Shown: piece by piece, positions 4,606-55,736 of the stretch | Layout: every line of letters begins with the position of its first letter | Position numbering within the stretch: position 1 is the first letter of the stretch | Source of the DNA: Candidatus Nanoarchaeia archaeon | GTDB taxonomy: Archaea > Nanobdellota > Nanobdellia > Woesearchaeales > JACPBV01 | Assembly: GCA_028279655.1 (NCBI GenBank) | Contig: JANQNH010000008.1 | Location: forward strand, 5,012-69,011 | Direction of reading: 5' to 3' | Length of the DNA: 64,000 nt | The notes under the pieces: generated by a model | Database searches by the model: none | What the model was told of the DNA's origin: nothing | What the model saw: the letters and a program-made list of their open reading frames with translations, nothing else | Position numbers and translations under genes: made by a program

Positions 4606-4606
4606 T

Positions 4607-29043: not shown

Positions 29044-29055
29044 AAAATTTTATCA

Positions 29056-29214: not shown

Positions 29215-29347
29215 ATACTGGGATTCTACCTCACGAATTAGATCTAATCATCTTCATAGATGCCCAAATTGTCAGGGCGCTGGATGTAAGTCATGTTATT
29301 TCAATGGATATGTCACACTCAGGAAACTGAGAGGATTGGTAGAATAA
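29207..29347 (+). pseudogene. Orphaned C-terminal Zn-finger half of the att-split regulator
   Basis: KRR-YWDSTSRIRSNHLHRCPNCQGAGCKSCYFNG...; in frame with 52224-52387 across the att core. Confidence 0.68.
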
Positions 29348-41423: not shown

Positions 41424-41488
41424 CAGTATATAAGGAAGTTGGCCAGTATTCCGGCAATTAGATCACCTATCTTCTTAATCATTATACA

Positions 41489-42220
41489 TCATTCCTCTGG
41501 AACCTTCATGAAGCACATCCAGTGCGTTTTCCCCTTCTTGTCAGATGTATGGCCAAAAAGCGGCTTAGTTTTGAATATGCTTAATATTGTTGATACTGAG
41601 ATCGAACCCTCGGACCACTTGAAAATCAATATACCAAAAGACTTCAATACCCTCATGCACTCATCAAACCCTTGTTTGATATCCAATGGCCATTGATCAG
41701 GATCTAATGTTCCATACTTATTATTTAACCAAGAGAACTTCCCATCCCTACTAAATAGGTGGGGTGGATCATATACAACTAAGTAGAAGCTCTCGTTAGG
41801 ATATTGGAGTTTCCTGAAATCTTGGACTATATCAGGATCCACATCAGACTTCATATCTGAGAAAATAACATGGGGATTCTCCTTATTAAACCAAAACATC
41901 TTATGACCACAACATACATCTAGGATATACTTTCCCCCTGGTACATTGGCCATTGTGGCCACATTTGACCTTGCCAAGGAATCATCTGACATTCTTAGAT
42001 CTTGATTAGACAGTCCCTTGGATCCAAGGGACTGTCCTTCCTGCAGGTAGGACTGTGCTTTCTTATTCCATCTTCCATCTAAGCAATTATCTTTACAGAT
42101 CCAAGTCATAGATCCTGGTTTATCTGATTCTCTAACTGGTTTGAGGAATTTCTCAAGCCTTTTCTTCCTGCACTTGGTACATTTGTGTCTTTTCATTCTC
42201 TGTGAAACTCCTGGGGGCAT
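41489..42220 (-). CDS. Phage-type amino (N6-A/N4-C) DNA methyltransferase with N-terminal Cys motif
   Basis: ILDVCCGHKMFWF, VVYDPPH, GFDECMRVLK..GILIFKWSE, PLFG, THWMCFMK; N-terminal CTKC..CKDNC. Confidence 0.88.
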   Translation of the reverse strand: MPPGVSQRMKRHKCTKCRKKRLEKFLKPVRESDKPGSMTWICKDNCLDGRWNKKAQSYLQEGQSLGSKGLSNQDLRMSDDSLARSNVATMANVPGGKYILDVCCGHKMFWFNKENPHVIFSDMKSDVDPDIVQDFRKLQYPNESFYLVVYDPPHLFSRDGKFSWLNNKYGTLDPDQWPLDIKQGFDECMRVLKSFGILIFKWSEGSISVSTILSIFKTKPLFGHTSDKKGKTHWMCFMKVPEE

Positions 42221-43413: not shown

Positions 43414-43415
43414 CT

Positions 43416-43547
43416 TCAACTCTGAGTATATCCAAAGATCCACATTAATATAGAATCAATAAACATTGTCCAAAATCCAGCTTTCCATTCCCACCATATC
43501 GCATCTGCAACTAAACAGAAAAATCCATATCCTAATGTTATTATCAC
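43416..43547 (-). CDS. 43-aa hydrophobic microprotein (not in ORF track)
   Basis: GTG after SD GAGGTGA; MIITLGYGFFCLVADAIWWEWKAGFWTMFIDSILMWIFGYTQS; stop 2 nt before ATPase ATG. Confidence 0.65.
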   Translation of the reverse strand: MIITLGYGFFCLVADAIWWEWKAGFWTMFIDSILMWIFGYTQS

Positions 43548-43559
43548 TTTCGCATCACC

Positions 43560-43901
43560 TCATCTCAACAATTCCCCCAGCCTTTTTTTTGAAATTACCC
43601 TATCGTTCAAAGATACTTGCCATTTGTATTGGGTGGCCTTTTTCTTGATTCCTCCATCTTCATCTATTATGTTTTTTAGCACATAGATCATTGGCATTGG
43701 TATCTGGATCATGAATGTCTCATCAACTTTCTTTAAGTTCTTAGGATCCTTGATCTGGATCATCATATATAGGATCCTTCTTCCCCTAATATCATAATTG
43801 ATGAACGCCTTCCCTACTGGAACTTGATCTTCAAACACATTTAGGCTTGATAATCTAACCTTCTTTTTTGGCTTGATCCTATCTTCATTTATTGGTATCA
43901 T
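43560..43901 (-). CDS. Hypothetical protein
   Basis: 113-aa ORF in leftward operon. Confidence 0.65.
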   Translation of the reverse strand: MIPINEDRIKPKKKVRLSSLNVFEDQVPVGKAFINYDIRGRRILYMMIQIKDPKNLKKVDETFMIQIPMPMIYVLKNIIDEDGGIKKKATQYKWQVSLNDRVISKKRLGELLR

Positions 43902-44008
43902 CTGCTGTTTTTTCCATGATTTTTTGCTAAAATTGGGTGACCGTTGGGACTTCGGAACGGCCCGGAAGTTCCTTCCTTATTATTATCATAATATAATAAA
44001 TATATACC

Positions 44009-44416
44009 TTACCCCCCCTCGGTGCTTTTTGCCTGGCTATTTCCGGCTTCTCCTGACTTATCTTTTTTCTTTTGAGACATTTCTTTCAACCTGGCAATAG
44101 GATCCTTGGACTGTTGCGCTAGAACCATCTCAATCTTTCCTAGCTCAAGCATGAGCTTCTCAAGGTTATTTTCCAGATCCCTTAAACTGTTGCTATGAGC
44201 TATAATGTAGTTGCTCCCAATGTTATGATGAAGAATCCACAGTTCCCTTTTTGCGAAGTCATGCCAGAGCTTAGCAAAGTCTGATCTGTTGATGGTCTTG
44301 TGTTCTTCCTTGCCCTTGTCAATGTAGTGGACATGTATCTTGAAGTCTTGGCTAGTTATCAATCTATTCCTTAGCTGGATGATGTTCTGCTTGATGTCTT
44401 TGATTACTTCACTCAT
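44009..44416 (-). CDS. Hypothetical protein with coiled coil
   Basis: 135-aa ORF, tight spacing. Confidence 0.7.
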   Translation of the reverse strand: MSEVIKDIKQNIIQLRNRLITSQDFKIHVHYIDKGKEEHKTINRSDFAKLWHDFAKRELWILHHNIGSNYIIAHSNSLRDLENNLEKLMLELGKIEMVLAQQSKDPIARLKEMSQKKKDKSGEAGNSQAKSTEGG

Positions 44417-44418
44417 TG

Positions 44419-45006
44419 TTATCCCTTTCCGGATGTTGCCTTGACAAAAGGCCTTGCATCCTTATAATATTGTATGAATTGATCTAGTGCTTTCTTTCCA
44501 GCATCACCAAGGTTCATTCTCAATTCTTCAAGCTCTATCAACATCTCACTATTTCTGCTTTGCAACTCCTGGCTCTTTGTTACCTCTCTGCAATACAGCT
44601 TGTGCATTGATAGTTCCAGCCTGTCAATTCCGTTGATCAGTAGGGGATAACCCTTCTTGTTCATGAATGATATGAAGTTTCCCTTCTTGACTTTGACATC
44701 AACCTTCCCAAACGGCACTTTTCTCATTGCCTGATATACCCCTGAAATTCCTGTTGGTGTCAACAATCTTTTATCTCTTGCACCGCCTGATCCTAAGTGA
44801 TGCTTTAACTTGAATACCTCAACCTTCTTGTCAGGGTTATCGAAGTTAATCATCATTGAACCAGTCTTGTTCTTGATGCCTATGTAAATTATAAAGACAA
44901 AACCACCAATGGACAGGCCTATAAAGAAAGCAAAGAACATTCCAAAGCCCAACATTCCTGTTGTTATTGGCATTTTAATCAGCCCCCCTCCTGATTTCAA
45001 TAACAA
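44419..45006 (-). CDS. Single-TM protein with C-terminal coiled coil
   Basis: N-terminal TM, heptad region; true start probably MPITTG. Confidence 0.7.
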   Translation of the reverse strand: MLLKSGGGLIKMPITTGMLGFGMFFAFFIGLSIGGFVFIIYIGIKNKTGSMMINFDNPDKKVEVFKLKHHLGSGGARDKRLLTPTGISGVYQAMRKVPFGKVDVKVKKGNFISFMNKKGYPLLINGIDRLELSMHKLYCREVTKSQELQSRNSEMLIELEELRMNLGDAGKKALDQFIQYYKDARPFVKATSGKG

Positions 45007-45835
45007 ACATAAAGATCATTAATGCTATCAGCATGGGTGTCTCTATCCATAGCACTATTGTCTTGATAACGCTGGTTATCCTCATTGTTTCATACTTCTC
45101 CTCAAGATCTTCATGGACCTTTAGATCTACAGTAAGGCTTTTGTTAACCATCTTCTCCTTTTCTGTAAGGCATTTGGTTAATAATATATTGCATTCTGTG
45201 GTTGATGTTGACACATCCCCAAGCTTGTTGCTCCAAGTCTCAAAAGAGGTTGAGTAGAATCCCCATCTCTGATCATCATCCATAAGCCTTGGAAGGTAAT
45301 CTCTGCATTTCTCATAAGCCCAGGAAACATTGAGATTTTCTTCCTCAAATCCTGGACACTTTAGGCTTATTGGAAACATGTATGAGAAATCATCAAGGTC
45401 AATAGGAAACTCCTCTGCTTCATCACCTACTTCAATCTTGATGTAGCTTCTGTTTTCTTTTTTGAATCTGTTGATCCAGACATCTACTTCCCTTGTCTCG
45501 TTATCAAGGCATTCTTTTTTGTCATATCTGCATGTAATATCAAGATCACATGAATCAGTTTCTAGATCATAGCTGTCACCAGCATCAAGATCTTTTTCAA
45601 TTACACATTTGCTGGTGGTTGCATTGCCACATCCAGAACAGTTGACATCATAATAACAAAAGCTGATATTTCCTGTCTTTGTTTCTGACGGAACCAAGCT
45701 TATGTTTAAATCTACCCTTGAACAATTTGTGTGGTTGTCTGATCTTACAGATGGAGCCAGGATCAAGAGGAATAGAATAATAATTGCAACTAGAAGGCCT
45801 GTTATTGTAAGATCCTTTATTAAGTCTTGTTTCAT
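44975..45835 (-). CDS. Cys-containing membrane glycoprotein with N- and C-terminal TM and pre-TM coiled coil
   Basis: Signal/TM, N-x-S/T sequons, about 12 Cys, helical region before the C-terminal TM. Confidence 0.75.
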   Translation of the reverse strand: MKQDLIKDLTITGLLVAIIILFLLILAPSVRSDNHTNCSRVDLNISLVPSETKTGNISFCYYDVNCSGCGNATTSKCVIEKDLDAGDSYDLETDSCDLDITCRYDKKECLDNETREVDVWINRFKKENRSYIKIEVGDEAEEFPIDLDDFSYMFPISLKCPGFEEENLNVSWAYEKCRDYLPRLMDDDQRWGFYSTSFETWSNKLGDVSTSTTECNILLTKCLTEKEKMVNKSLTVDLKVHEDLEEKYETMRITSVIKTIVLWIETPMLIALMIFMFVIEIRRGAD

Positions 45836-46038
45836 CCTGACAGCCCCTTCCAGTGTGCTGTGGAAAATTCCATCCCTTTCTCATATAGGCATCTGAAATG
45901 GACACCAGGCCTGAAAGGTATCTTGAAGATCTCTCCTCTCCTCAATTCTTTTCTTGTTATCTTATCCTTGCATATTGAACATCTCATTTTTATCATCCCC
46001 CATTGAATAACAAACTTGCAAAGCTTATTCCCAGCCAA
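45832..46038 (-). CDS. Small Zn-finger-like protein
   Basis: CSIC...HFRC; true start probably at MIKMR. Confidence 0.55.
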   Translation of the reverse strand: MAGNKLCKFVIQWGMIKMRCSICKDKITRKELRRGEIFKIPFRPGVHFRCLYEKGMEFSTAHWKGLSG

Positions 46039-46181
46039 ATAATAAACATAAGCACTACCGTCAGGAAATACGTCAACACTATACCTGGTGTTCCAGTGTC
46101 GGTGTAGCTAACTATCATCAAGCAAACGAAGTGGATAACTAAAGCAATTACAGGAGCTATGAGGAACCAGTAGGTGAACAT
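45993..46181 (-). CDS. Small membrane protein (2 TM)
   Basis: 62 aa hydrophobic; TAATG overlap with upstream gene. Confidence 0.65.
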   Translation of the reverse strand: MFTYWFLIAPVIALVIHFVCLMIVSYTDTGTPGIVLTYFLTVVLMFIIWLGISFASLLFNGG

Positions 46182-46468
46182 TATTTCTTCTCCTCATACC
46201 AGTAGTATGATCCTTTTCTGTGAATGTTTGTGGATCTTCGGTTCCTTGCTGATGTCAGTAGATTATAAACTGATGATTTCTGGAATGGGTGTTCTGTTGG
46301 CTTTAGGTTGTTATTCAATTCATCAACAATTTCAGTTGATGTGAATACGTTCTTCTTATTTTCCTTGAGGAACAAGGCAATTTTCTCAAAGGATCCCCTC
46401 CTTGTTGAGAAGCATTCTTCCTCAGCAAGGTCTTTTAATCTTACAACTTCAATTGGCATTTTTATCAT
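46181..46468 (-). CDS. Winged-HTH DNA-binding protein
   Basis: IALFLKEN...FTSTEI.......SSVYNLL......IHRKGSYYW. Confidence 0.7.
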   Translation of the reverse strand: MIKMPIEVVRLKDLAEEECFSTRRGSFEKIALFLKENKKNVFTSTEIVDELNNNLKPTEHPFQKSSVYNLLTSARNRRSTNIHRKGSYYWYEEKK

Positions 46469-46907
46469 CTCCCATAGCTATTAATAAACATTTCCTAAAG
46501 ACTGTGAGGTCTAAGGTTATTGTTTTGTCGTGCATAACTGTTAAATCACGTTCAACTCCATAGGCTATTGCTTTCTTTAGATTTCCTTCTCTCCCAATAA
46601 TACTCTTTTCCCCCTGAACTTCTGGAATGTAATAATAACCTTGCTTATCTCTTTTGTAGAAGTTTCTTGCTCTTGGTATTCTAACATTACTTACCCAATC
46701 AAAAATGGTAAACCTGTCATTTGCTGGATTTGTTTGTCTCACCAGTATTGTCATAGGGTATTTTCCATGTCCACAACAACAGGCAACCACTTCTGCATTA
46801 GGATTGAGATAATAATCTAAGTTTTCAATTAGGTTTCTTATACACTTATCTATTAGGGTGTTGCTTGTGTTATGATACTTTTTCAGTTTGCACATCTTCT
46901 TAACCAA
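46449..46907 (-). CDS. Phage-like protein with CCCGHG motif
   Basis: IDKCIRNLIENL...VVACCCGHGKYP. Confidence 0.65.
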   Translation of the reverse strand: MVKKMCKLKKYHNTSNTLIDKCIRNLIENLDYYLNPNAEVVACCCGHGKYPMTILVRQTNPANDRFTIFDWVSNVRIPRARNFYKRDKQGYYYIPEVQGEKSIIGREGNLKKAIAYGVERDLTVMHDKTITLDLTVFRKCLLIAMGDDKNAN

Positions 46908-47655
46908 CGACAGCCTCTTTTCCTTTTTGCTGGATTCCTTGTCTTATTCCTTCCTGGAACTCTGGAAGTTGAAAAGGCATTGTTACATCCAGCTTGACTG
47001 CATCAAGCCTGGCCCATGGTTGCTGTGGGCCTACAATGTGGAAGTTACTGATAAGATCATTGAGATCCCATCCAGGAAACGGAAAGAACTTATTATCAGG
47101 ATCATTCATTGAACATATTGTGAGTATTGAAAATTTTTTGTTGAATGGCTGGTTAGGGCCTAGCCTTATTAGAGAAAAAACACACCCAGCCCATTGTGTT
47201 CTGAGATCTTCCTTGAAGAAAAAAGAGAAAGGGATTCCTTTAGTCCCAATGCCATCCTGGAACTTTATGTTTGTTCCTTCTGTGTTGATTAGCTTCTTAT
47301 ACATCTTTTCCCTACACTTCATCAGGTTATGCTTAAAGAAGATATTGCCTCTCTTTGACAACATCCAAAAAGCTATCAGGATCACTGCCACTATGCAGAT
47401 GGTGATGAACAAAACAGCAAAAGATTTTCCAGCCCCCCAATGTCCAGGATAAACTTCTGTTACTTCTGTTGTTTGGATAGTTTGGTTCTTGATTATAACT
47501 TCCTTGAATGGTTTAGGAATCTTAGATCTCCAATCCGGATAAAGCCTGTTGACAAGAAACATTCCAAGTAATATTGCAACTACTATGAAGATCAAGATGA
47601 ATGCAAACAGCACCAGCTTCTTACCTTTGCTTTGCCTTGGTTGTTGTCTTGCCAT
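46900..47655 (-). CDS. Two-TM membrane protein
   Basis: 251 aa, two TM followed by a soluble domain. Confidence 0.75.
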   Translation of the reverse strand: MARQQPRQSKGKKLVLFAFILIFIVVAILLGMFLVNRLYPDWRSKIPKPFKEVIIKNQTIQTTEVTEVYPGHWGAGKSFAVLFITICIVAVILIAFWMLSKRGNIFFKHNLMKCREKMYKKLINTEGTNIKFQDGIGTKGIPFSFFFKEDLRTQWAGCVFSLIRLGPNQPFNKKFSILTICSMNDPDNKFFPFPGWDLNDLISNFHIVGPQQPWARLDAVKLDVTMPFQLPEFQEGIRQGIQQKGKEAVVG

Positions 47656-48043
47656 CCTTTCTGAATAACCTTATCCCCTGCCTTGTTATTGAGAATTGTT
47701 TCCTTGATCTGAGATGTTTTCCCTCTGGAATTATGTTAATGAATCCTTCTCTCTCAAGGATCAAGCATAAGCCATTGAAGAGCTTGTCACAGATCAATCC
47801 AAGATCATAGCCTATAACACCAACTCCACTAAGGCCCTTGATCTGATCTTCTCTTGTTAAATTTCTGATCCTTCGTGTCCATTCACTCTTGAGTTGCTTC
47901 TTGTAGATTGATAACTCTATCCTGGAAGATTTTGATAGGATCCTCTCATTCAATTCAAACAATATTTCCAGGATTATTATTCCTCTTGAATCAATGGTGA
48001 TTTTTTTTTGCTTCATTCTTAAAATAAAAAAAGCCCTCATCAT
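47621..48043 (-). CDS. Winged-HTH-like protein
   Basis: LEREGFI.......FSITRQGIRL wing motif; true start probably MKQKK. Confidence 0.6.
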   Translation of the reverse strand: MMRAFFILRMKQKKITIDSRGIIILEILFELNERILSKSSRIELSIYKKQLKSEWTRRIRNLTREDQIKGLSGVGVIGYDLGLICDKLFNGLCLILEREGFINIIPEGKHLRSRKQFSITRQGIRLFRKDGKTTTKAKQR

Positions 48044-48072
48044 AAAGCGTTGGGGCGATTCCTAATGAGGGC
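48021..48072 (-). terminator. Hairpin + T-tract inside the leftward operon
   Basis: GCCCTCAT/ATGAGGGC arms followed on the minus strand by TTTTTTTATTTT. Confidence 0.6.
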
Positions 48073-48080
48073 AGAGAATA

Positions 48081-48275
48081 TTATTGATCTTGCTTTGCGT
48101 TGGCTACCATTATCCAGCCCACAATTACTGATATGATCCCAGCAATCCACCATCCCCATATAGGATCACAATCCCAGCAAGTCAGCTTGGCCATGATCAT
48201 AAATATCACTGGCACTATGATCAATGCCCAGCCCCAAATCTTCAAACCTTTTTTTTCTTCTCCCATGGATTTCAC
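48081..48275 (-). CDS. Small membrane protein (2 TM)
   Basis: Two TM with CWDC loop; SD GAGGTGA. Confidence 0.7.
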   Translation of the reverse strand: MKSMGEEKKGLKIWGWALIIVPVIFMIMAKLTCWDCDPIWGWWIAGIISVIVGWIMVANAKQDQ

Positions 48276-48280
48276 CTCGA

Positions 48281-48934
48281 TTAATTATTTTCTCCCACCT
48301 TTACCCTATGAACTGCTATTTTTGTGGGTATAAACTCATCATGGAGAACCCTAATAACTTCTCTTTGTTGACAGTTCCTTAGTGGACATTTCCAAAGAAA
48401 ATAATCCCCCTTCTCATCAAATACTACACAACCTTGATCTATCCTCTCCTCATTCTTTAGAACTAAGTTTTTGTATGATATAGAATCACATGCTGTGCAA
48501 TTAAATGTTTCCTCGTTGTGTGTCCAAAAATATCTATACTCATCAATACAACTGAGATTAACTTTTTCTAGGCTTCTCTCGTTTACTGTTGTGAAATATC
48601 CATTGAAGTCAATATCTATGTCTGTATCCATTTGTTTCAGTAAAGAGAGGTAGACTGCTTCTTCTGGAATGTCATTACTTAATGCAAAAGCTATCTCTGG
48701 ACTTTCTGTAAGTGCAACTCCAATATTTTCTGCAACCCCTACAACACTATTTGAAAAAGCGTTGGATACTGATTTCATGAGCCACACAAAACCAAAGGAA
48801 GATATACCAATGGTTATCACTAAGCAAATTAGAATAATAGAGATTAGCTGTGTCCAGTTTATTGTCTTATAGTTATGCTCTATCTTCAACTTTTTTAACT
48901 CATGTTTTTTTTCTTTTTTCTCCATTCCAATCAA
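48281..48934 (-). CDS. Single-TM protein with Cys-containing ectodomain
   Basis: 217 aa, basic N-terminus, TM, 6 Cys in the C-terminal half. Confidence 0.7.
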   Translation of the reverse strand: MIGMEKKEKKHELKKLKIEHNYKTINWTQLISIILICLVITIGISSFGFVWLMKSVSNAFSNSVVGVAENIGVALTESPEIAFALSNDIPEEAVYLSLLKQMDTDIDIDFNGYFTTVNERSLEKVNLSCIDEYRYFWTHNEETFNCTACDSISYKNLVLKNEERIDQGCVVFDEKGDYFLWKCPLRNCQQREVIRVLHDEFIPTKIAVHRVKVGENN

Positions 48935-48941
48935 CCCCCCT

Positions 48942-49100
48942 TTAGTATTGAGTTAGGTTCTTTAACCCTAACTCTCCAATCTTCTCAAGCCGTGCCATGC
49001 AGTTCTTATGGAACAACTTATCTCTCTTTAGCTTGAGGTCATGCTCAAGCTGTATTAACTCCTTCTTCAACCGAATCCGTTCAAGTTCTGATTCTGGCAT
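48942..49100 (-). CDS. 52-aa coiled-coil microprotein (not in ORF track)
   Basis: MPESELERIRLKKELIQLEHDLKLKRDK...; SD GGAG; fills the gap. Confidence 0.65.
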   Translation of the reverse strand: MPESELERIRLKKELIQLEHDLKLKRDKLFHKNCMARLEKIGELGLKNLTQY

Positions 49101-49121
49101 TTGTATCAACTCCTTTGTTTT

Positions 49122-49244
49122 TTAGATTTTTAGATCATCACAACCCTGGTTGATCATTGCTTCCCCTCTTTTTTTCCTAGTGCATGTTCTTCTATCTATA
49201 CAAAATTCACATAAGACATCCTCAGTCTGATATGGTTCAGTCAC
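49122..49244 (-). CDS. 40-aa Cys-containing microprotein (not in ORF track)
   Basis: GTG start overlapping the upstream stop; CEFC....C...GC. Confidence 0.5.
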   Translation of the reverse strand: MTEPYQTEDVLCEFCIDRRTCTRKKRGEAMINQGCDDLKI

Positions 49245-49362
49245 TTCTTTCCAGCCTCTTTTGTTGCTTTGTTTTTCCACTGCACACATGGAATTTATTT
49301 CTCTTTTTATGACAAGTTGGACACCTTACTTTCCTGAGTTCCCTTCTCTCTGATTTTTTCAT
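49237..49362 (-). CDS. 41-aa basic Zn-finger-like microprotein (not in ORF track)
   Basis: MKKSERRELRKVRCPTCHKKRNKFHVC... Confidence 0.55.
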   Translation of the reverse strand: MKKSERRELRKVRCPTCHKKRNKFHVCSGKTKQQKRLERSD

Positions 49363-49371
49363 TCTAACAGA

Positions 49372-49674
49372 TCAATCCTCGGAGTTCTCAATCATCTTCT
49401 TTAATCTCAATATTTTACTGAATTTGACAGTTCTTACTTTTTCTTCTAGTATTTCCCAATCACAAAATATCTTTATTTGTTCAATCATAATCTCAACATC
49501 TGCCATTTCTTCTGCAAGGTCATCCCATACTCTCCCATCTTGGTTCCCCTTACGCATAACCTTATTAGTTGCTTTGATTAATTCTGCGCATTCTTCCATT
49601 AGCATACCAAATTGCAGAGGCAAACCCCACTTTCTTACAGCTTCTTTGTATAACCTTTTTATTCTTCCATCCAT
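49372..49674 (-). CDS. MazG-like all-alpha nucleotide pyrophosphohydrolase
   Basis: WG..LQ..MLMEECAELI.A..K..R....LAEEMADVEIMIEQ. Confidence 0.88.
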   Translation of the reverse strand: MDGRIKRLYKEAVRKWGLPLQFGMLMEECAELIKATNKVMRKGNQDGRVWDDLAEEMADVEIMIEQIKIFCDWEILEEKVRTVKFSKILRLKKMIENSED

Positions 49675-49680
49675 AGTTAT

Positions 49681-49917
49681 CTACCTCATCCATGAAGGTC
49701 TTGGTGTGTTAATAGGATCTTCCAAATACTCATCTTCTTCATGTTGCATATTCACCTCAAAACTATCAGCCATTATCTCATCACCATTGATAACATCATG
49801 GTCACATCTTGAACATAGATTCATATCAGTTTCTTCACCATAGTCATTGGTGAATTTATGATTATAAACTCGATCAGTCATACATCCACAACGACCACAT
49901 TCCTTGTATTCAGTCAT
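49681..49917 (-). CDS. Small acidic Zn-finger protein
   Basis: CGRC...LCSRC. Confidence 0.7.
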   Translation of the reverse strand: MTEYKECGRCGCMTDRVYNHKFTNDYGEETDMNLCSRCDHDVINGDEIMADSFEVNMQHEEDEYLEDPINTPRPSWMR

Positions 49918-50015
49918 TCTAGTAGATCAACATCCTCTTTGATTTCTTCCAGCTTTTCAAGTTCTTCAAAGGTCAGATTCTCTCTCCTAACTTGCATTCT
50001 TTGTTTTTGGTTCAT
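49914..50015 (-). CDS. 33-aa microprotein (not in ORF track)
   Basis: MNQKQRMQVRRENLTFEELEKLEEIKEDVDLLE with ATGA overlaps at both ends. Confidence 0.6.
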   Translation of the reverse strand: MNQKQRMQVRRENLTFEELEKLEEIKEDVDLLE

Positions 50016-50407
50016 TCTCTGTAAAGTTCCAGAAGCCAATCCTCAAGATCCATTGGCCTCAATTCCCTTGCCTGGTGAATAGACAAATACCTTTTTCCTG
50101 AGAGCTTCTTTGCTCTGATGAATCCATAGATGATGAATTGATCTCTGTGCCTTACCAATAAACAGATCCAGATATTCTCATTGATCTGGCGTTTTCTATT
50201 CTCTTTATTAGTGAAGTCAAACCTACCAACATGAATATTATTGGTCTTGCCTTGCTTCACTGACAATTGACAGCTTTTCACCTCTACCTTATACTTCTCT
50301 TTAATAAGAAAATCATACCAGCTATTCTCAAAAGTATACTCGATCCCCTTATCTCTCAATAGTGAGCCAAAGAAAAATTCTCCCTTCATTCCAGCTTCCT
50401 TTCCCAT
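50012..50407 (-). CDS. PD-(D/E)xK nuclease-family protein
   Basis: G..GE helix, WYDFLI....VEVKS. Confidence 0.78.
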   Translation of the reverse strand: MGKEAGMKGEFFFGSLLRDKGIEYTFENSWYDFLIKEKYKVEVKSCQLSVKQGKTNNIHVGRFDFTNKENRKRQINENIWICLLVRHRDQFIIYGFIRAKKLSGKRYLSIHQARELRPMDLEDWLLELYRE

Positions 50408-50659
50408 TTATTTTCTCTCCATCATCTTCTTTATTGAAGGCATCTTCTGATAAGCGCAGAAGAATCCTTTATTCTTCATGAAATCATCAGGCTCTACCAT
50501 GTGTGGACAACAGTCTGAACATTGCCAATACCAGTTGTGTTCTTTGTCTGCTATCTTGCAGTTTGGATTCTTGGTTGCCATGTGATCATCCCAGGAAATC
50601 ACCCAACCTTTTTTGTCTTTCAAGTAGAAGCCTATTGAATTTCCTGAATGAATGATCAA
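50408..50659 (-). CDS. Small Cys-rich hypothetical protein
   Basis: CSDCCPH..FFC; true start probably MATKNPNC overlapping the upstream stop. Confidence 0.5.
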   Translation of the reverse strand: MIIHSGNSIGFYLKDKKGWVISWDDHMATKNPNCKIADKEHNWYWQCSDCCPHMVEPDDFMKNKGFFCAYQKMPSIKKMMERK

Positions 50660-51593
50660 TACCCTTTAACACTTTGTTATGTGTTTTGATATTGACTGCA
50701 AGATTATCATATATTGATGAGTGTTGTGTGTAGCTTGTTGCAAATTGATTGAGAACCTTTGAAGTATCTGCATTAATCTTTAATGTCCCCATCACAGCTT
50801 CTTTTATTATTGTAAGTTCATTAGCAATGTCTGGAGCAATGTTATGAATTGCATAATTTGATACTGTGTTTTTGACATGTACTGGACTTTTATATTCCAC
50901 CTTCTTCTTATAGACTTTTTTGAACACAGTATCATGGATTACCATATCTTCTGGAATCTTATCAAGAAAATCCAGGCCATGAACTCCATGCTCTCCTTTA
51001 CATCTTTTCTTCAAGATCTCAAACTTTGATTTACCACCAAAATATTTTATAATCTTCTTCAAGGCTTCAATACATTGCTTATCAAGTCTTTCTGTAACTT
51101 CGTTTATCCTACATCCAATATCATCAATATCCCTTGCTGTCATTAATCTCCATTGTTTGTTGTGACTTTTATTGGTTACTTCTACCTGAGTTTTTTTGAT
51201 CACTATTCTGCAACCATAGAAATTGTTGAAGTGATGTTCAGAACCATAATTTTTGGATTGATAATCAAACCCTACTAACCGTATTTTTAGTTTTTTTAGA
51301 GTAGGGTTGTCTGATCTTGGTGGGTTGAAATTTCTTTTATCAAAATCAAAGTATAGACGATAATTATGGGGTTGCCATAGCCATTGAATCTTCTTTGATC
51401 CCTCAACCCTACCCACCATCATAGGGTTCAAACCGGTTTCCTGTAGAACCTTGTTGAAAATGGGGGTTGTTATCTCGTCTATATGTTTTTTGATATGCGC
51501 CTCATTATTCTTTGAAATTTTTCCATGAGAAATATAGGGGGGAGGGTATTGTGAACTTAGATGTTTTTGTTCCTCCCTCTTTTTTCTGTGCAT
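50586..51593 (-). CDS. Large basic hypothetical protein (replication/DNA-binding candidate)
   Basis: 335 aa, largest soluble ORF near the start of the leftward operon; no family recognised. Confidence 0.7.
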   Translation of the reverse strand: MHRKKREEQKHLSSQYPPPYISHGKISKNNEAHIKKHIDEITTPIFNKVLQETGLNPMMVGRVEGSKKIQWLWQPHNYRLYFDFDKRNFNPPRSDNPTLKKLKIRLVGFDYQSKNYGSEHHFNNFYGCRIVIKKTQVEVTNKSHNKQWRLMTARDIDDIGCRINEVTERLDKQCIEALKKIIKYFGGKSKFEILKKRCKGEHGVHGLDFLDKIPEDMVIHDTVFKKVYKKKVEYKSPVHVKNTVSNYAIHNIAPDIANELTIIKEAVMGTLKINADTSKVLNQFATSYTQHSSIYDNLAVNIKTHNKVLKGIDHSFRKFNRLLLERQKRLGDFLG

Positions 51594-51619
51594 TATTCAA
51601 CCTCTTTTCCTTATGTAGT

Positions 51620-51772
51620 TTAAGCCGTTTCTATACGGCTAATTTGATCTTTCTTGGATAATTTGATGTAAGCCCTGGCTTCAATGCTTTTGCCACAATA
51701 AGGGCATATAATTGGCTTTTCTCTGGCCCTGTTCCCTTTGGCAAATCTGCCGTTTTTCTCTCTGTCAGGCAT
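51620..51772 (-). CDS. Small basic Zn-ribbon-like protein
   Basis: MPDREKNGRFAKGN...CPYCGK. Confidence 0.65.
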   Translation of the reverse strand: MPDREKNGRFAKGNRAREKPIICPYCGKSIEARAYIKLSKKDQISRIETA

Positions 51773-51773
51773 T

Positions 51774-51905
51774 TTAAAGCTGATCAACCCCAGCATCTTG
51801 AAGCATTTGGCGATATACTTCATCATTGAGCTGGGAGTTGAGTTTATGGCGAGTATTAGAGTTATTCATCTCTAGCTGAGATTTTATAGAAGGGAGATCA
51901 TTCAT
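51774..51905 (-). CDS. 43-aa microprotein (not in ORF track)
   Basis: MNDLPSIKSQLEMNNSNTRHKL...; overlaps upstream stop and abuts the downstream start. Confidence 0.5.
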   Translation of the reverse strand: MNDLPSIKSQLEMNNSNTRHKLNSQLNDEVYRQMLQDAGVDQL

Positions 51906-52056
51906 TGGGATCGCCCTGATCTGATGGGGATATTGTGAGATCATATCCTTTATCCTTTAAGATCTGGCCATTCTTGATATAGGCCTTGTCTACAAGAAAA
52001 CAGTAGCTATTCCCAACACTCTTAATTCTTCTATCCTTTATGGTTATTGTATCCAT
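51898..52056 (-). CDS. AbrB-like 52-aa regulator (not in ORF track)
   Basis: MDTITIKDRRIKSVGNSYCFLVDKAYIKNGQILKDKGYDLTI; SD AGGTGA; first gene of the leftward operon. Confidence 0.8.
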   Translation of the reverse strand: MDTITIKDRRIKSVGNSYCFLVDKAYIKNGQILKDKGYDLTISPSDQGDPNE

Positions 52057-52111
52057 CTGCATCACCTTTTTTTGTTATTATTTAAGTTGTTATTCTTATA
52101 ATAACATAAGT

Positions 52112-52195
52112 TATATATAAACTTTACGGTATTTTGACAGGTCACTATATAGTGACAAATAGTTATAAGAAAAGTTTATATATATGTTATAACAT
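52112..52195. promoter_or_regulatory. Symmetric divergent promoter with central palindromic operator
   Basis: AAAGTTTATATATA on both strands (52112-52125 minus, 52171-52184 plus); central GTCACTATATAGTGAC (52141-52156); ATGTTATAACAT (52184-52195). Confidence 0.8.
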
Positions 52196-52223
52196 CCGTT
52201 ATTACATATATGAGGTGAGAATA

Positions 52224-52394
52224 ATGGATTTTGAAACTGAGATCGTATCCAGGGGCAATAGTTATGGATTTGCTATTCCAAAGGCCCTAGTTAGATGCAA
52301 TGTTTTAAAACAAGGCCAGAAATATAGGATAATAGTTGAAGAAGCTGAACCTGTTCCTATGGATCTTATTGAAAAGAAGAAACGCCGCGACTGA
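52224..52394 (+). CDS. AbrB-like regulator, truncated at the att site (56 aa integrated form)
   Basis: MDFETEIVSRGNSYGFAIPKALV...LKQGQKYRIIVE; SD GAGGTGA; runs through the att core and stops inside the antisense tRNA. Confidence 0.82.
   Translation: MDFETEIVSRGNSYGFAIPKALVRCNVLKQGQKYRIIVEEAEPVPMDLIEKKKRRD
52380..52387 (+). repeat. Right attachment core AAACGCCG
   Basis: Overlaps the last 5 nt of tRNA-Ser; identical to 29207-29214. Confidence 0.75.
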
Positions 52395-52506
52395 GATTTG
52401 AACTCAGAAATCCGTGAGGAAACGGGATGTTTGCACAATCTTTAGCAATCTTGCACCATAATCTTAAAGATTATGTCCGCGCAGTACCAGATTGTGCCAT
52501 CGCGGC
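52383..52506 (-). tRNA. tRNA-Ser(GCT) with two introns (52451-52476 at 29/30; 52429-52442 at 37/38)
   Basis: Acceptor GCCGCGA/TCGCGGC-G73, long variable arm, T-arm CTGAG-TTCAAAT-CTCAG; splicing gives CGGGA-TTGCTAA-TCCCG. Confidence 0.92.
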
Positions 52507-52546
52507 ATAAGAATATAAGTATTTTTATTCTGTATATAAACTTTTT

Positions 52547-52676
52547 GAAAACCCAACAATAAGGACGAAAACTGCCTGAAGAGGGAACCCCCATACTAAG
52601 TAGGGGAATTTCCTTTTGGCATAGGACTTTATGAAATAAAGTCCGTGTTTGAGTCAATTATTATTGTTGGGTTTTC
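52547..52676. repeat. Palindromic intergenic element (family member)
   Basis: Perfect 16-bp terminal inverted repeat GAAAACCCAACAATAA/TTATTGTTGGGTTTTC; internal GGACTTTAT/ATAAAGTCC. Confidence 0.88.
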
Positions 52677-52730: not shown

Positions 52731-54686
52731 ATGAAAAAGAGGTTGATATTTTTAGTTTTTCTTTTGGTTTTGCCTAATGTTCTTGGTGAGGAGTGGATCT
52801 TTAACAGCGAGCATGTGGAGATGGAGCTGGAAATCTCCAGTAATGTTGAGCTGGTGCCGAAAAGCTCAAAGTATAGTGTTGATTATGTTATAGCAAACCT
52901 GTCTTTTATTCCCAGGGATGGATTTCAGGAAGAGGTGTTAAGTCTAGAAACAGAGCCATTTACTGAGGTTGAGAATGATGCTGTTATCTTTAGATGGGAT
53001 GAGCCAGAAGAGAAGAAGCTGGACTATAGCCTTAAAAGTGATATCAGGACATTCAACAAGATTGTCAGGATCAGGGACAAGGTGAGTTTCCCACTAAGGG
53101 ATGTACCTGAGGATGTTATGTATTATACAAGAGCCTCTGAGAGTATCGATTCAGATGACAAGGATGTTGTGAAGCTAGGTTCTGAGATAATCCAGGGAGA
53201 AGATGATCTTTATGCTGTTGTCTTTAAATTGGGAGAGTGGACAAAGGAGAATATAGACTATGACCTTAGTACTTTAACAGAGAGCGTATCCCAGAAGGCT
53301 TCTTGGGTATTGAGAAACAGAGAGGGTGTGTGTGATGAGTTGACTAATCTATTTATCGCTATGAACCGTGCCCTGGGGATCCCTGCTAAGTTTGTATCTG
53401 GTGTTGCTTATACCAATGCTGATGATTTTGAGGAGGGTTTTGGCCCTCATGGATGGGCTGAGGTCTATTTTCCTGATTATGGGTGGGTTCCTTTTGATGT
53501 TACCTATGGAGAGTTTGGTTTTGTTGATGCTGGACATATAAAGCTTAAGGAGAGCCTGGATGTAAGCCAGGCAAGCACCCAGTTCCAGTGGATGGGGGAG
53601 AATGTCGATATCAAGACCCGTCAGTTAGATATCAAGACAACTGTGAAGGACAAAGGAGGGAGTATTGGGAAGCTTATATCTGTTCGAGCCAGAGCTGTAA
53701 AAGGTAAGGTTGGTTTTGGAAGCTATAACCTTATTGAGGTTGATCTTGAGAACCTCAAGGACTACTACGTTGCTACAGAGCTAAGGTTGTCAAAGCCCAA
53801 GGAGATAGAGGTTATCGGAGAGGAGGAAAAGGTGATTTTACTGGAGCCTGGGGAGGAGAAGAAGATCAACTGGATAGTAAGAGTAAGTGATGATCTGGAA
53901 GGGGGTTTTGTTTATACCTTCCCATTTGTAATTAATTCTGTAAGGAATGTATCTTCATACTTTAATTTTGATGTTGTTGAAGATGGGAAGGAGTTCAGCC
54001 TAGAGGGAATGGAAACTTTGGTCAAGGAAAATGAGGAAGAAAAGAGCTTTTTGGGAAGGGTTGATCTAAGATGCGGCTCGGATAAGGAAGGCATCTATGA
54101 GTATGAGAACGCTATGGTGGAGTGTAATGTCAAGAATATAGGGAACATCTATCTGGAGGAGTTGAATGTTTGTTTGGAATCTGACTGTAGGGAACTGGAA
54201 CTGGGGATTACACAGGAGGAAGAGGTAAGCTTTAACTTTAAGCCTGTTTCTGCGGGGAGGCAGGAGATAGTGGTGAAGGCCAGCAATCCTGATGTGAGCA
54301 AGAACAGTATTTTTGATATCACTGTATATGATGAACCTTCAATAGAGATCGATGAGATAACATATCCTGAGGAGGTAAGATATAAGGAGGTTTTTGAGCT
54401 GTCCTTTATCCTGGATAAGAGATCCAAGTTTGCACCCTCTGATGTTAATATCAGGATAGCGCCTGTTGGCAAGGAGTGGGAGCTCAACCAGCTCAATGAG
54501 AACAGGAAGTTTGTATTGAAGATGTATGGAAGTGAACTAAACGTAGGGGAGAATAATTTTCAGATCCTTATCAAGTATAAGGATAAAAGAGGAAAGGACT
54601 ATTCTGTCAGTGAGGAGTTTAGCATCAGTCTGGTCGATGTTGGATTTTTCCAGAGAATCATCATATTTTTCAAGAATCTGTTTTAG
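52731..54686 (+). CDS. Secreted transglutaminase-like domain protein
   Basis: Signal peptide; GVCDEL, RALGIPAKFVSG, HGWAEVY, WVPFD catalytic triad. Confidence 0.9.
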   Translation: MKKRLIFLVFLLVLPNVLGEEWIFNSEHVEMELEISSNVELVPKSSKYSVDYVIANLSFIPRDGFQEEVLSLETEPFTEVENDAVIFRWDEPEEKKLDYSLKSDIRTFNKIVRIRDKVSFPLRDVPEDVMYYTRASESIDSDDKDVVKLGSEIIQGEDDLYAVVFKLGEWTKENIDYDLSTLTESVSQKASWVLRNREGVCDELTNLFIAMNRALGIPAKFVSGVAYTNADDFEEGFGPHGWAEVYFPDYGWVPFDVTYGEFGFVDAGHIKLKESLDVSQASTQFQWMGENVDIKTRQLDIKTTVKDKGGSIGKLISVRARAVKGKVGFGSYNLIEVDLENLKDYYVATELRLSKPKEIEVIGEEEKVILLEPGEEKKINWIVRVSDDLEGGFVYTFPFVINSVRNVSSYFNFDVVEDGKEFSLEGMETLVKENEEEKSFLGRVDLRCGSDKEGIYEYENAMVECNVKNIGNIYLEELNVCLESDCRELELGITQEEEVSFNFKPVSAGRQEIVVKASNPDVSKNSIFDITVYDEPSIEIDEITYPEEVRYKEVFELSFILDKRSKFAPSDVNIRIAPVGKEWELNQLNENRKFVLKMYGSELNVGENNFQILIKYKDKRGKDYSVSEEFSISLVDVGFFQRIIIFFKNLF

Positions 54687-55590: not shown

Positions 55591-55701
55591 GAAAACCCAA
55601 TAATAATAATGGGCCGTCCGATTCTTCGCTTCGCTCAGAACCGGGTGGGGCACCCCGTAGGGGGCAACCCCCTCCCCACCGGCAATTATTGTTGGGTTTT
55701 C
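55591..55701. repeat. Palindromic intergenic element (family member)
   Basis: Terminal IR GAAAACCCAATAATAAT/ATTATTGTTGGGTTTTC; TTCT-TCGCTTCGCTC-AGAA hairpin; 27-nt identity with 10655-10681. Confidence 0.88.
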
Positions 55702-55736
55702 TCTTTTTCTTATTTTTTCATAAAAAAACCAAAAGA

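Follow-up and report, generated by a model that had tools for sequence, protein, structure and literature searches.

Two small divergent genes for proteins that appear to be remote paralogues of the AbrB/MazE superfamily flank a 167-bp control region on an integrated archaeal element, and the rightward gene ends inside one of the element's attachment-like repeats. Our tentative reading, to which we give slightly less than an even chance, is that the spacer is a divergent-promoter hub and the AbrB pair a two-state switch coupled to integration. The analysis covered a stretch of 64,000 nucleotides (the window), and all positions refer to it.

Organization of the locus

The leftward gene, AbrB-L (51898-52056, minus strand), encodes 52 amino acids, contains IKSVGNSYCFLVDKAYI and is represented in the database by P0002. 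The rightward gene, AbrB-R (52224-52394, plus strand), encodes 56 amino acids, contains IVSRGNSYGFAIPKALV and is represented by P0001. By position AbrB-L would be cro-like and AbrB-R repressor-like. An initial sequence-only reading had described a 52-residue minus-strand ORF diverging from a plus-strand ORF that ends at 52394, and both are found in the sequence and the ORF list. The most likely start of AbrB-R is the ATG at 52224, which matches the 56-residue database copy. GGTGA stands 5 nt ahead of the ATG in both genes (ATG at 52056 in AbrB-L).

The control region between them (52057-52223) has a GC content of 23% and holds eight copies of GTTAT/ATAAC. AbrB-L is the first gene of a leftward array of ∼11 kb on the minus strand (41079-52056 in the ORF map), which includes a DNA methyltransferase (phrog_954, E=5.2e-60), a MazG-like pyrophosphohydrolase (phrog_2245, E=6.9e-24) and a DUF87/HerA-like ATPase (E=9.9e-4, under the Pfam cutoff). 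Downstream of AbrB-L lies a 68-residue zinc-ribbon-like ORF, and downstream of AbrB-R a tRNA-Ser-like gene. Elsewhere the element carries ORFs of 527, 619 and 952 amino acids, many membrane-type ORFs and a 335-residue protein for which scans of Pfam, PHROGs and NCBIfam returned no family.

Assignment of the two proteins to the AbrB/MazE superfamily

Direct searches with AbrB-L and AbrB-R gave no matches in Pfam (hmmscan, E≤0.1, including PF04014), PHROGs or NCBIfam. Single-sequence PDB searches found nothing significant for either protein, and a word-index homologue search returned only the two proteins themselves. A profile built from both proteins had 141 matches at E≤1e-3 among 1.84 billion representatives, both queries included, and 6 of 65 aligned relatives matched PF04014. 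For profile-profile comparison we used a PF04014-positive family (PF04014 in 17 of its 18 members). Against this family hhalign gave 97.8% (E=1.1e-12) for the plus-like family and 96.0% (E=4.3e-9) for the minus-like family, and the two subfamilies matched one another at 98.4%, which supports the original proposal of two divergent AbrB/MazE paralogues. The nearest Atlas cluster to AbrB-R scored 0.90, with PF04014 on 50% of the cluster members, and one further family profile (A3) matched the 'Addiction module antidote' 9vyb at E=5.6e-4. The N-terminal motif, hydrophobic-x-K/R-x-G-N-S-x-x-hydrophobic-x-I-P-K, is that of AbrB/MazE/VapB-type antitoxins. We regard AbrB-L and AbrB-R as probable remote paralogues and accept their membership at the level of the superfamily only.

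An alignment-based monomer model of AbrB-L reached a pLDDT of 86.4, with strands at residues 11-14 and 17-20 and a helix at 24-28; in Foldseek all of its matches had E>3, and MazE (1ub4_C) was matched with a TM score of 0.49. The single-sequence model of AbrB-R was all-beta and had no fold match at E≤0.001. We took neither fold search as an argument in either direction. Modelling hints weakly at an AbrB-L/AbrB-R heterodimer.

Predicted promoters, central palindrome and candidate operators

The same 14-mer, AAAGTTTATATATA, occurs on each strand of the spacer as an exact copy, as had been noticed: at 52112-52125 (minus), where it is the predicted BRE/TATA of the leftward promoter, and at 52171-52184 (plus), where it is that of the rightward promoter. 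A third near-copy lies at 52531-52544 (minus), ahead of the tRNA-Ser-like gene. The 12-mer core of this sequence, AAAGTTTATATA, is present 24 times in the 2.07-Mb genome, compared with an estimated ∼2 copies expected from base composition. For 11 of the 24 copies, an ORF of 100 amino acids or more starts 22-37 nt further on, as measured by the longest downstream ORF. The promoter symmetry originally described is borne out as a pair of outward-facing, near-consensus BRE/TATA elements that share an axis with a palindrome; with 24 core copies in the genome the 14-mer is not specific to a switch, and it is predicted to be the consensus promoter of this host.

Between the two boxes, 30-31 bp from each TATA centre, is a perfect 16-bp palindrome of the form GTCAC-N6-GTGAC (GTCACTATATAGTGAC, 52141-52156). 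Its axis (52148.5) lies less than 1 bp from that of the paired 14-mers (52148.0), in agreement with the earlier observation. Even when three mismatches were allowed this was the sole match in the window (0.10 expected), and GTCAC-N4-8-GTGAC occurs twice in the genome and at this one position in the element. The genome contains 56 perfect 16-bp palindromes, or one per 37 kb, so chance alone is unlikely to have put the centre of one within 0.5 bp of the axis of the promoters. A repeat search extended the mirrored arms to 20 nt (52106-52125 and 52171-52190, 90% complementary). The two spacers that separate box from palindrome, 15 and 14 nt long, do not mirror each other, and the symmetry is thus not that of one big duplicated palindrome. 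The palindrome is ∼30 bp upstream of both TATA centres and upstream of both BRE elements. Archaeal repressors do not usually act ∼30 bp upstream of the TATA centre.

Two inverted repeats lie closer to the boxes. TGTTATT-N5-AATAACA (52088-52106) is directly downstream of the leftward TATA box, and the 12-bp palindrome ATGTTATAACAT (52184-52195) abuts the rightward one. TGTTAT-N0-8-ATAACA is found nine times in the genome and within the element only at 52088-52106; TGTTATAACA likewise occurs nine times, and in the element only at 52184-52195. Judged by sequence and position, these TGTTAT inverted repeats are better candidate operators than the central palindrome. The proposal that ATGTTAT follows each TATA box was right as to its presence on both sides but not as to register: on the plus side (52184-52190) it overlaps the final base of the box, whereas on the minus side (52107-52101) it lies 4 nt past the box, 5 nt out of register with its counterpart.

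The short motif itself is strongly enriched. The eight GTTAT/ATAAC copies in the spacer, six of them on one strand, compare with 0.85 expected; no shuffle out of 5000 and no AT-rich genome window out of 1667 contained eight. Nowhere else in the element is GTTAT as dense: 170 nt here contain 9 copies, and the maximum outside this spot is 4.

Boundaries of the element and its tRNA target

The element, a provirus or integrative plasmid of ∼23.2 kb (29198-52411) in a host that is probably a DPANN-type archaeon, is missing from a genome of the same family (G117), in which the flanking homologues are contiguous. There the homologues of 25590-26255 and 27147-27467, the left tRNA, the tRNA-Ser gene and a 651-residue gene adjoin, and the tRNA-Ser gene is inverted in orientation relative to the one in the window. 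The 11-kb leftward operon of the initial description persists as a long leftward array, but it is part of an element of ∼23 kb with the integrase at its far end.

The integration target is a tRNA-Ser(GCU)-like gene with two introns (52383-52510, minus strand) that is homologous to a tRNA of G117. Neither default ARAGORN nor Rfam called this gene; it was found at a relaxed threshold, and tRNA-Ser(gct) was called after removal in silico of 26 and 14 nt. The right att-like repeat (52371-52411, plus strand; core AAACGCCG at 52380-52387) is situated at the 3' end of the tRNA-Ser-like gene, and the left att-like repeat (29198-29238, plus strand) has its core at 29207-29214. Compared with 29198-29225, the right repeat gave 22 ungapped matches out of 28; the best of 300 shuffles scored 19 and the best of 200 real-sequence controls 20. 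The exact core measures 8 nt and the repeat is otherwise degenerate, being detected only by targeted ungapped comparison. BLAST found no second copy of the tRNA 3' end of at least 14 nt in the genome.

A tyrosine recombinase (29687-30373, plus strand) is encoded near the left repeat. It matched phrog_216 (E=3.8e-4) and phrog_1 (E=1.2e-3) and had no Pfam match; its nearest Atlas cluster scored 0.97, with PF00589 on 98% of members. In contigs over this stretch from the probable source run we saw no joint, skipped element or circular junction, but contigs drop rare forms, which makes them uninformative on excision.

The attachment repeat and a probable split of the AbrB-R gene

The final eight codons of AbrB-R lie within the right att repeat and overlap the tRNA 3' end. 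That the gene is cut by the attachment site had been proposed from the sequence, and two observations bear this out: the 22/28 repeat spans its last codons, and the reading frame continues in phase after the left repeat. The would-be continuation in an excised circle (29204-29347, plus strand) extends 43 codons past the repeat core and contains CPNC...CKSC. A run of 45 open codons would arise by chance with a probability of 0.027. On the upstream side of the left repeat just 16 codons are open (stop-to-stop ORF 29150-29347). The left-end frame also has an ATG at 29165 and could be a separate small gene. Going by the repeats, AbrB-R of the circular form would be a protein of ∼98 amino acids with an AbrB domain followed by a four-cysteine knuckle. 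The integrase would be co-oriented with AbrB-R in the circle, 340 nt past the stop of the continued frame, and has its own TATA-like box.

The CxxC...CxxC tail matched no known family and had no homologue among longer proteins, and none of the 141 relatives contained two CxxC motifs. Searching 400 genomes of the phylum with the tail gave three matches at E=0.004-0.008, which we regard as chance-level; the one ORF examined among them, at locus L049, lacks an AbrB-like N-terminus.

Related loci

Homologues of AbrB-L with 43-52% identity were found in seven metagenome loci. At one of these (L036) the homologue heads a syntenic array, and AbrB-L relatives head long arrays rather than two-gene modules. 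Conservation of the layout in related elements had been named as a check. A divergent AbrB partner was present in none of the five related loci for which 900 nt or more of upstream sequence was available, and the loci compared included none for a plus-like relative. One of the five, L037, has a tandem AbrB partner instead of a divergent one.

The family profile matched in 62 of 400 genomes of the phylum, mostly to antitoxin-like KKWGNS...IPK proteins. The loci inspected from those 62 genomes held antitoxin-like or other AbrB proteins outside both subfamilies. A viral contig (L001, a bacterial phage) carries an AbrB-like gene overlapping a 120-residue ORF, a pair that is MazE/MazF-like by eye and not orthologous. 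Two further viral scans gave no related loci, and one genome-contig match proved false, being an alternative frame of a bacterial gene. In three genomes (G107, G131 and G217) an AbrB-like gene adjoins tRNA-Met and is accompanied by a divergent small ORF that by eye is winged-helix-like. At first sight this resembled the present locus, but the 20 kb covered there contained no integrase. The arrangement is probably either a conserved neighbourhood of the chromosome or a small island and was not counted as support.

Proposed mechanism and alternative explanations

In the mechanism that we propose, the spacer would be the single divergent-promoter hub of the element, with one BRE/TATA box directing transcription leftward into AbrB-L and the 11-kb array and the other rightward into AbrB-R. 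Dimers of both paralogues would bind the TGTTAT inverted repeats beside the TATA boxes, and perhaps the central palindrome, and the bound repeats would occlude TBP/TFB or RNA polymerase. In the excised circle the rightward promoter would be followed by the ∼98-residue AbrB-R and then by the integrase and plus-strand genes. Integration would cut AbrB-R down to the bare AbrB domain and separate it from the integrase and those genes. In this integrated state AbrB-R would keep the leftward array off, and AbrB-L would counteract it. A stronger version, which we think unlikely as it stands, would make this an archaeal integration-dependent immunity built wholly on the AbrB fold, with an attP-spanning repressor, AbrB-L as counter-regulator, possibly mixed dimers, and recombination setting the switch. 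The circular and integrated forms of AbrB-R would then be unlike each other in their oligomeric state, their stability or their binding to DNA.

The same features could belong to a replication origin or copy-control region. The AT-rich spacer, with its iteron-like GTTAT copies and palindrome, would then be the origin, and the AbrB proteins would be a plain autoregulated pair that tunes copy number or early transcription; there would be no bistable switch, and the att overlap would have no function. This account is credible, if on the unlikely side. A spacer of 23% GC with eight GTTAT copies (six on one strand) and a unique palindrome is what it would lead one to expect, and the lack of conservation of the pair in relatives fits it as well. 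In the available text on two other archaeal elements, pT26-2 has a SpoVT/AbrB gene beside a putative origin and shares the hydrophobic-rich half and large proteins (PMC2926602), and C68 of pSSVx binds between divergent promoters with unknown effect (PMC5569661). The GTTAT copies, however, are short and irregularly spaced (15, 21, 52, 24 and 12 nt), unlike typical iterons, and the element has no recognisable initiator, its 335-residue protein being without a family. Moreover, the two inverted repeats lie between the TATA box and the expected start, where archaeal repressors act, and an ORF that continues in phase over the att site would be coincidental.

It is improbable, in our estimate, that the symmetry has no regulatory meaning and that two back-to-back consensus promoters merely flank an unrelated palindrome, such as a host-protein or methyltransferase site, while the proteins act elsewhere. 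Such an arrangement would account for a 14-mer that matches the consensus of the genome and is also used by the adjacent tRNA-like gene, for the asymmetric box-palindrome spacers and for the 5-nt register shift of ATGTTAT. It would leave to chance a unique 16-bp palindrome within 0.5 bp of the promoter axis, a GTTAT excess of at least eightfold and the presence in 110 bp of two TGTTAT inverted repeats whose motifs are rare, at nine copies each in 2.07 Mb. We consider it highly improbable that both genes encode orphan antitoxins of the AbrB/MazE type, left over from toxin-antitoxin modules, instead of switch proteins. Their nearest solved relatives are indeed 'Addiction module antidote' chains, the family profile finds mostly KKWGNS...IPK antitoxin-like proteins in the 400 genomes (with 17 of 18 PF04014-positive), and in L001 the stop of the AbrB-like gene overlaps the start of the 120-residue ORF. 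Yet the C-terminal toxin-binding extension is absent from both proteins, neither has a toxin-like neighbour (the zinc-ribbon-like ORF follows AbrB-L and the tRNA follows AbrB-R), and AbrB-L relatives lead long arrays.

Next to nothing has been learned of how the mobile elements of small-genome (DPANN-type) archaea decide between staying integrated and replicating, and archaeal genetic switches that have been worked out in detail, whatever their kind, are few. The locus offers a testable module of ∼500 bp with two tiny proteins, three to four candidate operators, two consensus promoters and an att site in a regulator gene. If the integration-coupled reading is true, such a switch arose independently in archaea with a different DNA-binding fold, which would bear on the idea that circuits of this integration-dependent sort are a simple solution that keeps recurring (PMC3694055). 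If it is false, the locus still gives a clean example, in an archaeal element, of an AbrB-type control region to compare with that of pSSVx C68.

Comparison with known systems

The lambda cI/cro switch consists of the divergent promoters PRM and PR and the helix-turn-helix proteins cI and Cro, which share a tripartite operator, OR1-3. The present locus resembles it in having divergent promoters, two small DNA-binding-type proteins and one arm that leads into a long array. It differs in the AbrB fold of its proteins, in its archaeal transcription machinery and in the att site inside a regulator gene. A lambda-type cI/cro switch, as first suggested for this locus, does not fit the spacer, which has two differing TGTTAT inverted repeats and an unrelated palindrome rather than three related sites. 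With the AbrB/MazE/VapB antitoxins (PF04014) the two proteins share the N-terminal motif and profile homology, but they have no toxin partner and no C-terminal toxin-binding tail.

Among archaeal elements, the available text on pT26-2 describes a SpoVT/AbrB gene beside a putative origin, for which copy-number control was suggested, in a family of integrative plasmids of Thermococcales and Methanococcales that have a hydrophobic-protein-rich half and two large proteins (PMC2926602). The present element is similarly integrative, with an AbrB-type gene at an intergenic region, a hydrophobic-rich half and large proteins; it is set beside pT26-2 on these features, without a protein match to that family. 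In pT26-2, as far as that text goes, there is one AbrB gene and not a divergent pair, and no split regulator is described.

The C68 protein of the Sulfolobus plasmid-virus pSSVx is a small AbrB-like swapped-hairpin factor without a C-terminal domain that, in the part of the source available, binds the C68/orf60 control region between its own promoter and a divergent one, with one site over its own BRE and another equidistant between the promoters, and with unknown effect (PMC5569661). In pSSVx all other genes run in the direction opposite to that of the regulator gene. In the integrated copy of the present element AbrB-R likewise stands alone against the 11-kb minus-strand array, and the central palindrome lies exactly midway, like the equidistant C68 site. 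The divergent partner in pSSVx is, however, a CopG protein (ribbon-helix-helix) and not a second AbrB paralogue, and the available text describes no att link. The C68 motif TATG(C/GG)TTTTC is unrelated to the motifs of this locus, and neither profile matched C68 (pdb 3o27) in the PDB at E≤10.

By analogy, the closest bacterial counterpart would be integration-dependent immunity rather than lambda cI/cro. A literature search found no paper joining 'integration-dependent immunity' with 'archaea'. The mycobacteriophages BPs, Brujita and Charlie carry an int-rep-cro cassette that confers such immunity; attP lies inside the regulator coding sequence, and the viral and prophage forms of the regulator differ at the C-terminus, according to the available text (PMC3694055). 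Set against that account, the differences are that our host is archaeal, with TBP/TFB promoters, that both regulators have the AbrB fold in place of a helix-turn-helix, that the part removed here would be a four-cysteine knuckle and not a recognised degradation tag (in the BPs type integration takes away a proteolysis tag, and the shortened protein is the active repressor), and that int has its own TATA-like box and is located 340 nt downstream. The likenesses concern the layout. Regulator and int are co-oriented there and would be so in the circular form of this element. The att site falls within the regulator coding sequence, here as judged from the repeats alone, and the repeat of this element sits at a tRNA 3' end. 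The 12-bp operator of BPs may be compared with our candidate 12-bp palindrome and 7-N5-7 inverted repeat. Finally, the cro-like gene of the BPs-type phages lies divergently beyond a control region of ∼200 bp whose promoters stand back to back, and AbrB-L, by its position across 167 bp, would take the corresponding place in this element.

A divergent gene pair flanks a mirror-symmetric spacer

The two divergent small ORFs that a sequence-only reading had described at 51898-52394 are present. AbrB-L, on the minus strand (51898-52056), has 52 aa and matches its database copy P0002, and AbrB-R, on the plus strand (52224-52394), has 56 aa from the ATG at 52224, most likely its start in agreement with the database copy P0001. 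In both, GGTGA is read 5 nt ahead of the ATG. The spacer between them (52057-52223) measures 167 bp at 23% GC. The 14-mer AAAGTTTATATATA, claimed on both strands, occurs in exact copies at 52112-52125 (minus) and 52171-52184 (plus), and a repeat search showed the mirror around them to reach 20-nt arms with 90% complementarity. The palindrome GTCACTATATAGTGAC at 52141-52156 occurs once in the window; it is centred at 52148.5 and the two boxes have their axis at 52148.0, an offset of 0.5 bp, inside the 1 bp proposed. As only 56 perfect 16-bp palindromes exist in the 2.07-Mb genome, chance would not be expected to produce this coincidence. The box-to-palindrome spacers (15 and 14 nt) are not mirror images of each other, and the symmetry therefore involves separate elements and not one inverted duplication. 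The initial observation was confirmed, and the anatomy is richer than first seen.

The 12-mer core of the 14-mer has 24 copies in the genome, against ~2 expected by an estimate from base composition. For 11 of the 24, a longest-downstream-ORF measure finds an ORF of 100 aa or more that starts 22-37 nt downstream. This placement supports both boxes as probable archaeal BRE/TATA elements. A third near-copy of the 14-mer (52531-52544, minus) precedes the neighbouring tRNA-like gene. The 14-mer appears to be the host's consensus promoter, and the identity of the two boxes therefore has no special meaning. With TATA centres at 52117.5 and 52178.5 and the usual archaeal TATA-to-start distance of ~26 nt, transcripts are predicted to start near 52091 and 52205.

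Eight copies of GTTAT/ATAAC were counted in the spacer against 0.85 expected, a number matched by 0 of 5000 shuffles and 0 of 1667 AT-rich genome windows. Two inverted repeats share a TGTTAT half-site and are candidate operators: TGTTATT-N5-AATAACA (52088-52106), just downstream of the leftward TATA box, and the 12-bp palindrome ATGTTATAACAT (52184-52195), which abuts the rightward one. The ATGTTAT thought to follow each TATA box is indeed part of these repeats; its positions on the two sides are 5 nt out of register. Each repeat motif type occurs nine times in the genome, and the only copies in the mobile element to which the pair belongs (~29198-52411) are those in the spacer. GTCAC-N4-8-GTGAC occurs twice in the genome, and within the element at the spacer palindrome only. 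Archaeal repressors usually act at sites between TATA box and start point; the central palindrome lies ~30 bp upstream of each TATA centre.

Both proteins are probable distant AbrB/MazE relatives

Neither protein matched in direct family scans (Pfam, PHROGs, NCBIfam), and single-sequence PDB searches found nothing significant. In a single comparison they share 29% identity over 41 residues (E=1e-4). A profile built from both was run against 1.84 billion representatives and retrieved 141 proteins at E<=1e-3, a count that includes the two queries. These divide into relatives of AbrB-R (plus-like, GNSYxFxIPKALVxCxVL) and of AbrB-L (minus-like, GxSxGFIVDKAYIxNGQ). The AbrB/MazE family PF04014 was matched by 6 of 65 aligned relatives, and A3, a profile made from the relatives, matches PDB 9vyb, 'Addiction module antidote' (E=5.6e-4).

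The yardstick was an alignment of 18 antitoxin-like proteins encoded by genomes of this phylum, of which 17 are PF04014-positive. Against it, hhalign scored the plus-like family at 97.8% (E=1.1e-12) and the minus-like family at 96.0% (E=4.3e-9); the yardstick members were found via A3, which makes the comparison not fully independent, while their Pfam assignment is independent. Compared with each other, the two families gave 98.4%. The nearest cluster in Atlas, a protein cluster resource, scored 0.90, with PF04014 present on 50% of the members. An alignment-based monomer model of AbrB-L (pLDDT 86.4) shows a hairpin and helix, then an extended chain; fold searches with the models of both proteins gave no significant match. 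We accept both as probable members of the AbrB/MazE superfamily, at which level the proposed AbrB paralogy holds on these profile comparisons. They are the sole two family copies in the genome.

Co-prediction of the AbrB-L and AbrB-R domains scored 0.46, against 0.00 for the best of three controls, with contact agreement of at least 95% and partner pLDDT of at least 75. Of 80 solved complexes 58 passed this mark, as did 2 among 110 mismatched pairs; passes at <=0.60 comprised 7 of the 80 and both mismatches. Because AbrB-type homodimers have been solved, the pass may reflect likeness only. It weakly suggests a mixed dimer, which we do not claim.

A probable att site of a 23-kb element lies within AbrB-R

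G117 belongs to the same family, and in its genome homologues of 25590-26255 and 27147-27467, two tRNAs and a 651-aa gene (52731-54686 in the window, right of the element) are all adjacent. The tRNAs, ~110 nt apart, are counterparts of 29055-29131 and 52383-52510, so that from about 29.2 to 52.4 kb the window contains inserted DNA. The original reading gave an 11-kb leftward operon; the element as a whole is ~23 kb long and apparently integrated. G244, of the same genus, has a homologue of the 651-aa gene (60% identity), and the 11.5 kb upstream of it held no match to window ORFs of at least 90 aa from the element or left flank.

The ORF at 29687-30373 had no Pfam match and is a tyrosine recombinase by phrog_216 (E=3.8e-4) and Atlas (0.97, PF00589 on 98% of members). 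A comparison of 40 nt around the tRNA 3' end with the 555 nt between left tRNA and integrase yielded a direct repeat (29198-29225 and 52371-52398) identical at 22 of 28 positions, with the exact core AAACGCCG. No shuffle of 300 (maximum 19) and no real-sequence control of 200 (maximum 20) reached 22 matches; the inverted orientation gave 15. On the tRNA strand of the left junction, six T come straight after CGGCG, as in the native trailer of the G117 tRNA, which fits a displaced host side of attB at this junction. The element also encodes a DNA methyltransferase (phrog_954, 5.2e-60), a MazG-like pyrophosphohydrolase (phrog_2245, 6.9e-24), a weakly matched DUF87/HerA-like ATPase and many membrane or secreted ORFs. 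Its GC content does not differ from that of the flanks (0.386 vs 0.384).

The right repeat spans the final codons of AbrB-R (...E K K K R R D stop), bearing out its description as an att-split gene. This phase continues at the left repeat (AAA CGC CG.) and stays open for 43 codons past the shared residues, through CPNC...CKSC to a stop at 29345-29347; the chance of 45 open codons in sequence of such composition is 0.027. This left-end frame, which has an ATG inside it at 29165, might be a separate gene. It is open for only 16 codons ahead of the left repeat, as expected for a 3' gene fragment joined to host DNA. If the frame is such a fragment, AbrB-R in the excised circle would encode a protein of ~98 aa in which a four-cysteine knuckle follows the AbrB domain. 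Next would come a small ORF, then the integrase and the plus-strand genes as far as 40929, and all genes would be transcribed away from one control region, converging near 41.0 kb. No homologue of the four-cysteine tail was detected in protein, family and genome searches, 400 phylum genomes included, and none of the 141 relatives carries two CxxC motifs. The C-terminal tails of plus-like relatives are mutually unrelated, which is compatible with frequent fusion to junction sequence.

Several further features were noted in and around the element. Its methyltransferase gene contains a 28-bp perfect palindrome with GGATCC (42009-42036). The bounding tRNA on the left adjoins a 404-aa protein (27559-28773, minus) that combines a LAGLIDADG_3 domain (E=5e-9) with a TrmB-like winged helix. 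The tRNA-Ser(GCU)-like gene at 52383-52510 (minus), missed by default ARAGORN and by Rfam, has two apparent introns, ~26 nt in the 5' strand of the anticodon stem and ~14 nt past the anticodon loop. Its G117 homologue, inverted relative to it, has extra segments elsewhere, one in the D-loop, and is called 'Ile' with a 74-nt intron by ARAGORN. Segments 52547-52676 and 55591-55702 share 16-17-nt terminal inverted repeats (GAAAACCCAACAATAA / TTATTGTTGGGTTTTC) around mutually unrelated, GC-richer interiors of ~95 nt, with no third such pair in the genome; they may represent MITE-like elements or cassettes of structured RNA. The assembly has 2.07 Mb at 89.9% completeness, against 1.3 Mb for the genus and family genomes (n=2) and 0.7-1.9 Mb across the listed 400 genomes of the phylum; this bin could be unusually large or contain extra material.

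The divergent arrangement in related loci

Minus-like relatives were found at seven metagenome loci (43-52% identity). In L036 the AbrB-L homologue comes first in an array, followed by a small Cys-rich ORF and a homologue of 50586-51593; the position of AbrB-L as array leader appears conserved. Conservation of the divergent layout was not borne out: at the five loci where 900 nt or more of upstream sequence could be read, such an AbrB-like partner is absent (L033 and L039, with <60 nt, were left out), which so far leaves the pairing specific to this element. L037 has a tandem AbrB-like gene ~575 nt upstream.

Leaders upstream of the AbrB-L homologues share a conserved stretch (L035 3425-3625, L037 1047-1247, L038 1645-1845) with a GC-rich hairpin (CAGGGGTAGGCATTTGGTGATGTCTGCCC in L035) between TATA-like box and start codon, which may act as a regulatory RNA or bind a protein. 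By eye, L036 has a TnpB-like (IS200/IS605) 390-aa ORF directly upstream of the homologue's promoter (2718-3890) and an HNH-like insert (HKDGNPRNN...H) in its homologue of 50586-51593 (4490-5662).

G107, G131 and G217, three genomes from the same order, each carry an AbrB-like gene with a tail that looks coiled-coil-like; the gene is convergent with tRNA-Met (L006 1276-2000, L007/L046 957-2013, L025/L045 1568-2185), overlapping it by 19 nt (G107) or 33 nt (G131) or ending 27 nt away (G217). Divergent from the start of this gene is a small ORF that looks winged-helix-like, and no integrase was seen in the 20 kb read at the G131 and G217 loci.

Comparison with known systems

Reading the locus as a switch is plausible. 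We tentatively favour a regulatory switch coupled to integration, at a little under an even chance. Symmetry of the spacer without regulatory meaning would fit boxes that merely repeat a host consensus; set against the coincidence of palindrome and promoter axis, it is improbable. That these relatives of antitoxin-like proteins are orphan antitoxins is very improbable. Lambda cI/cro resembles the present locus in general topology only.

A plain autoregulatory, copy-control or origin region is a somewhat unlikely account, and AbrB-like genes of other archaeal elements bear on it. According to PMC5569661, every pSSVx gene except that of the AbrB-like C68 has the opposite orientation; C68 binds at its own BRE and midway between two divergent promoters, and a CopG homologue is its divergent partner. 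In pT26-2, PMC2926602 places a SpoVT/AbrB gene next to the putative origin.

For a switch coupled to integration, the closest likeness is the integration-dependent immunity of mycobacteriophages, in which, according to PMC3694055, integration removes a degradation tag to give active repressor. The gene topology described there is the same as here: a regulator spanning attP, a co-oriented int, a short operator and a divergent small gene across ~200 bp. Our literature search did not find 'integration-dependent immunity' together with 'archaea'. The locus is not a new principle; what is new is that two AbrB paralogues are combined with archaeal promoters and with an att site inside one of the regulators.
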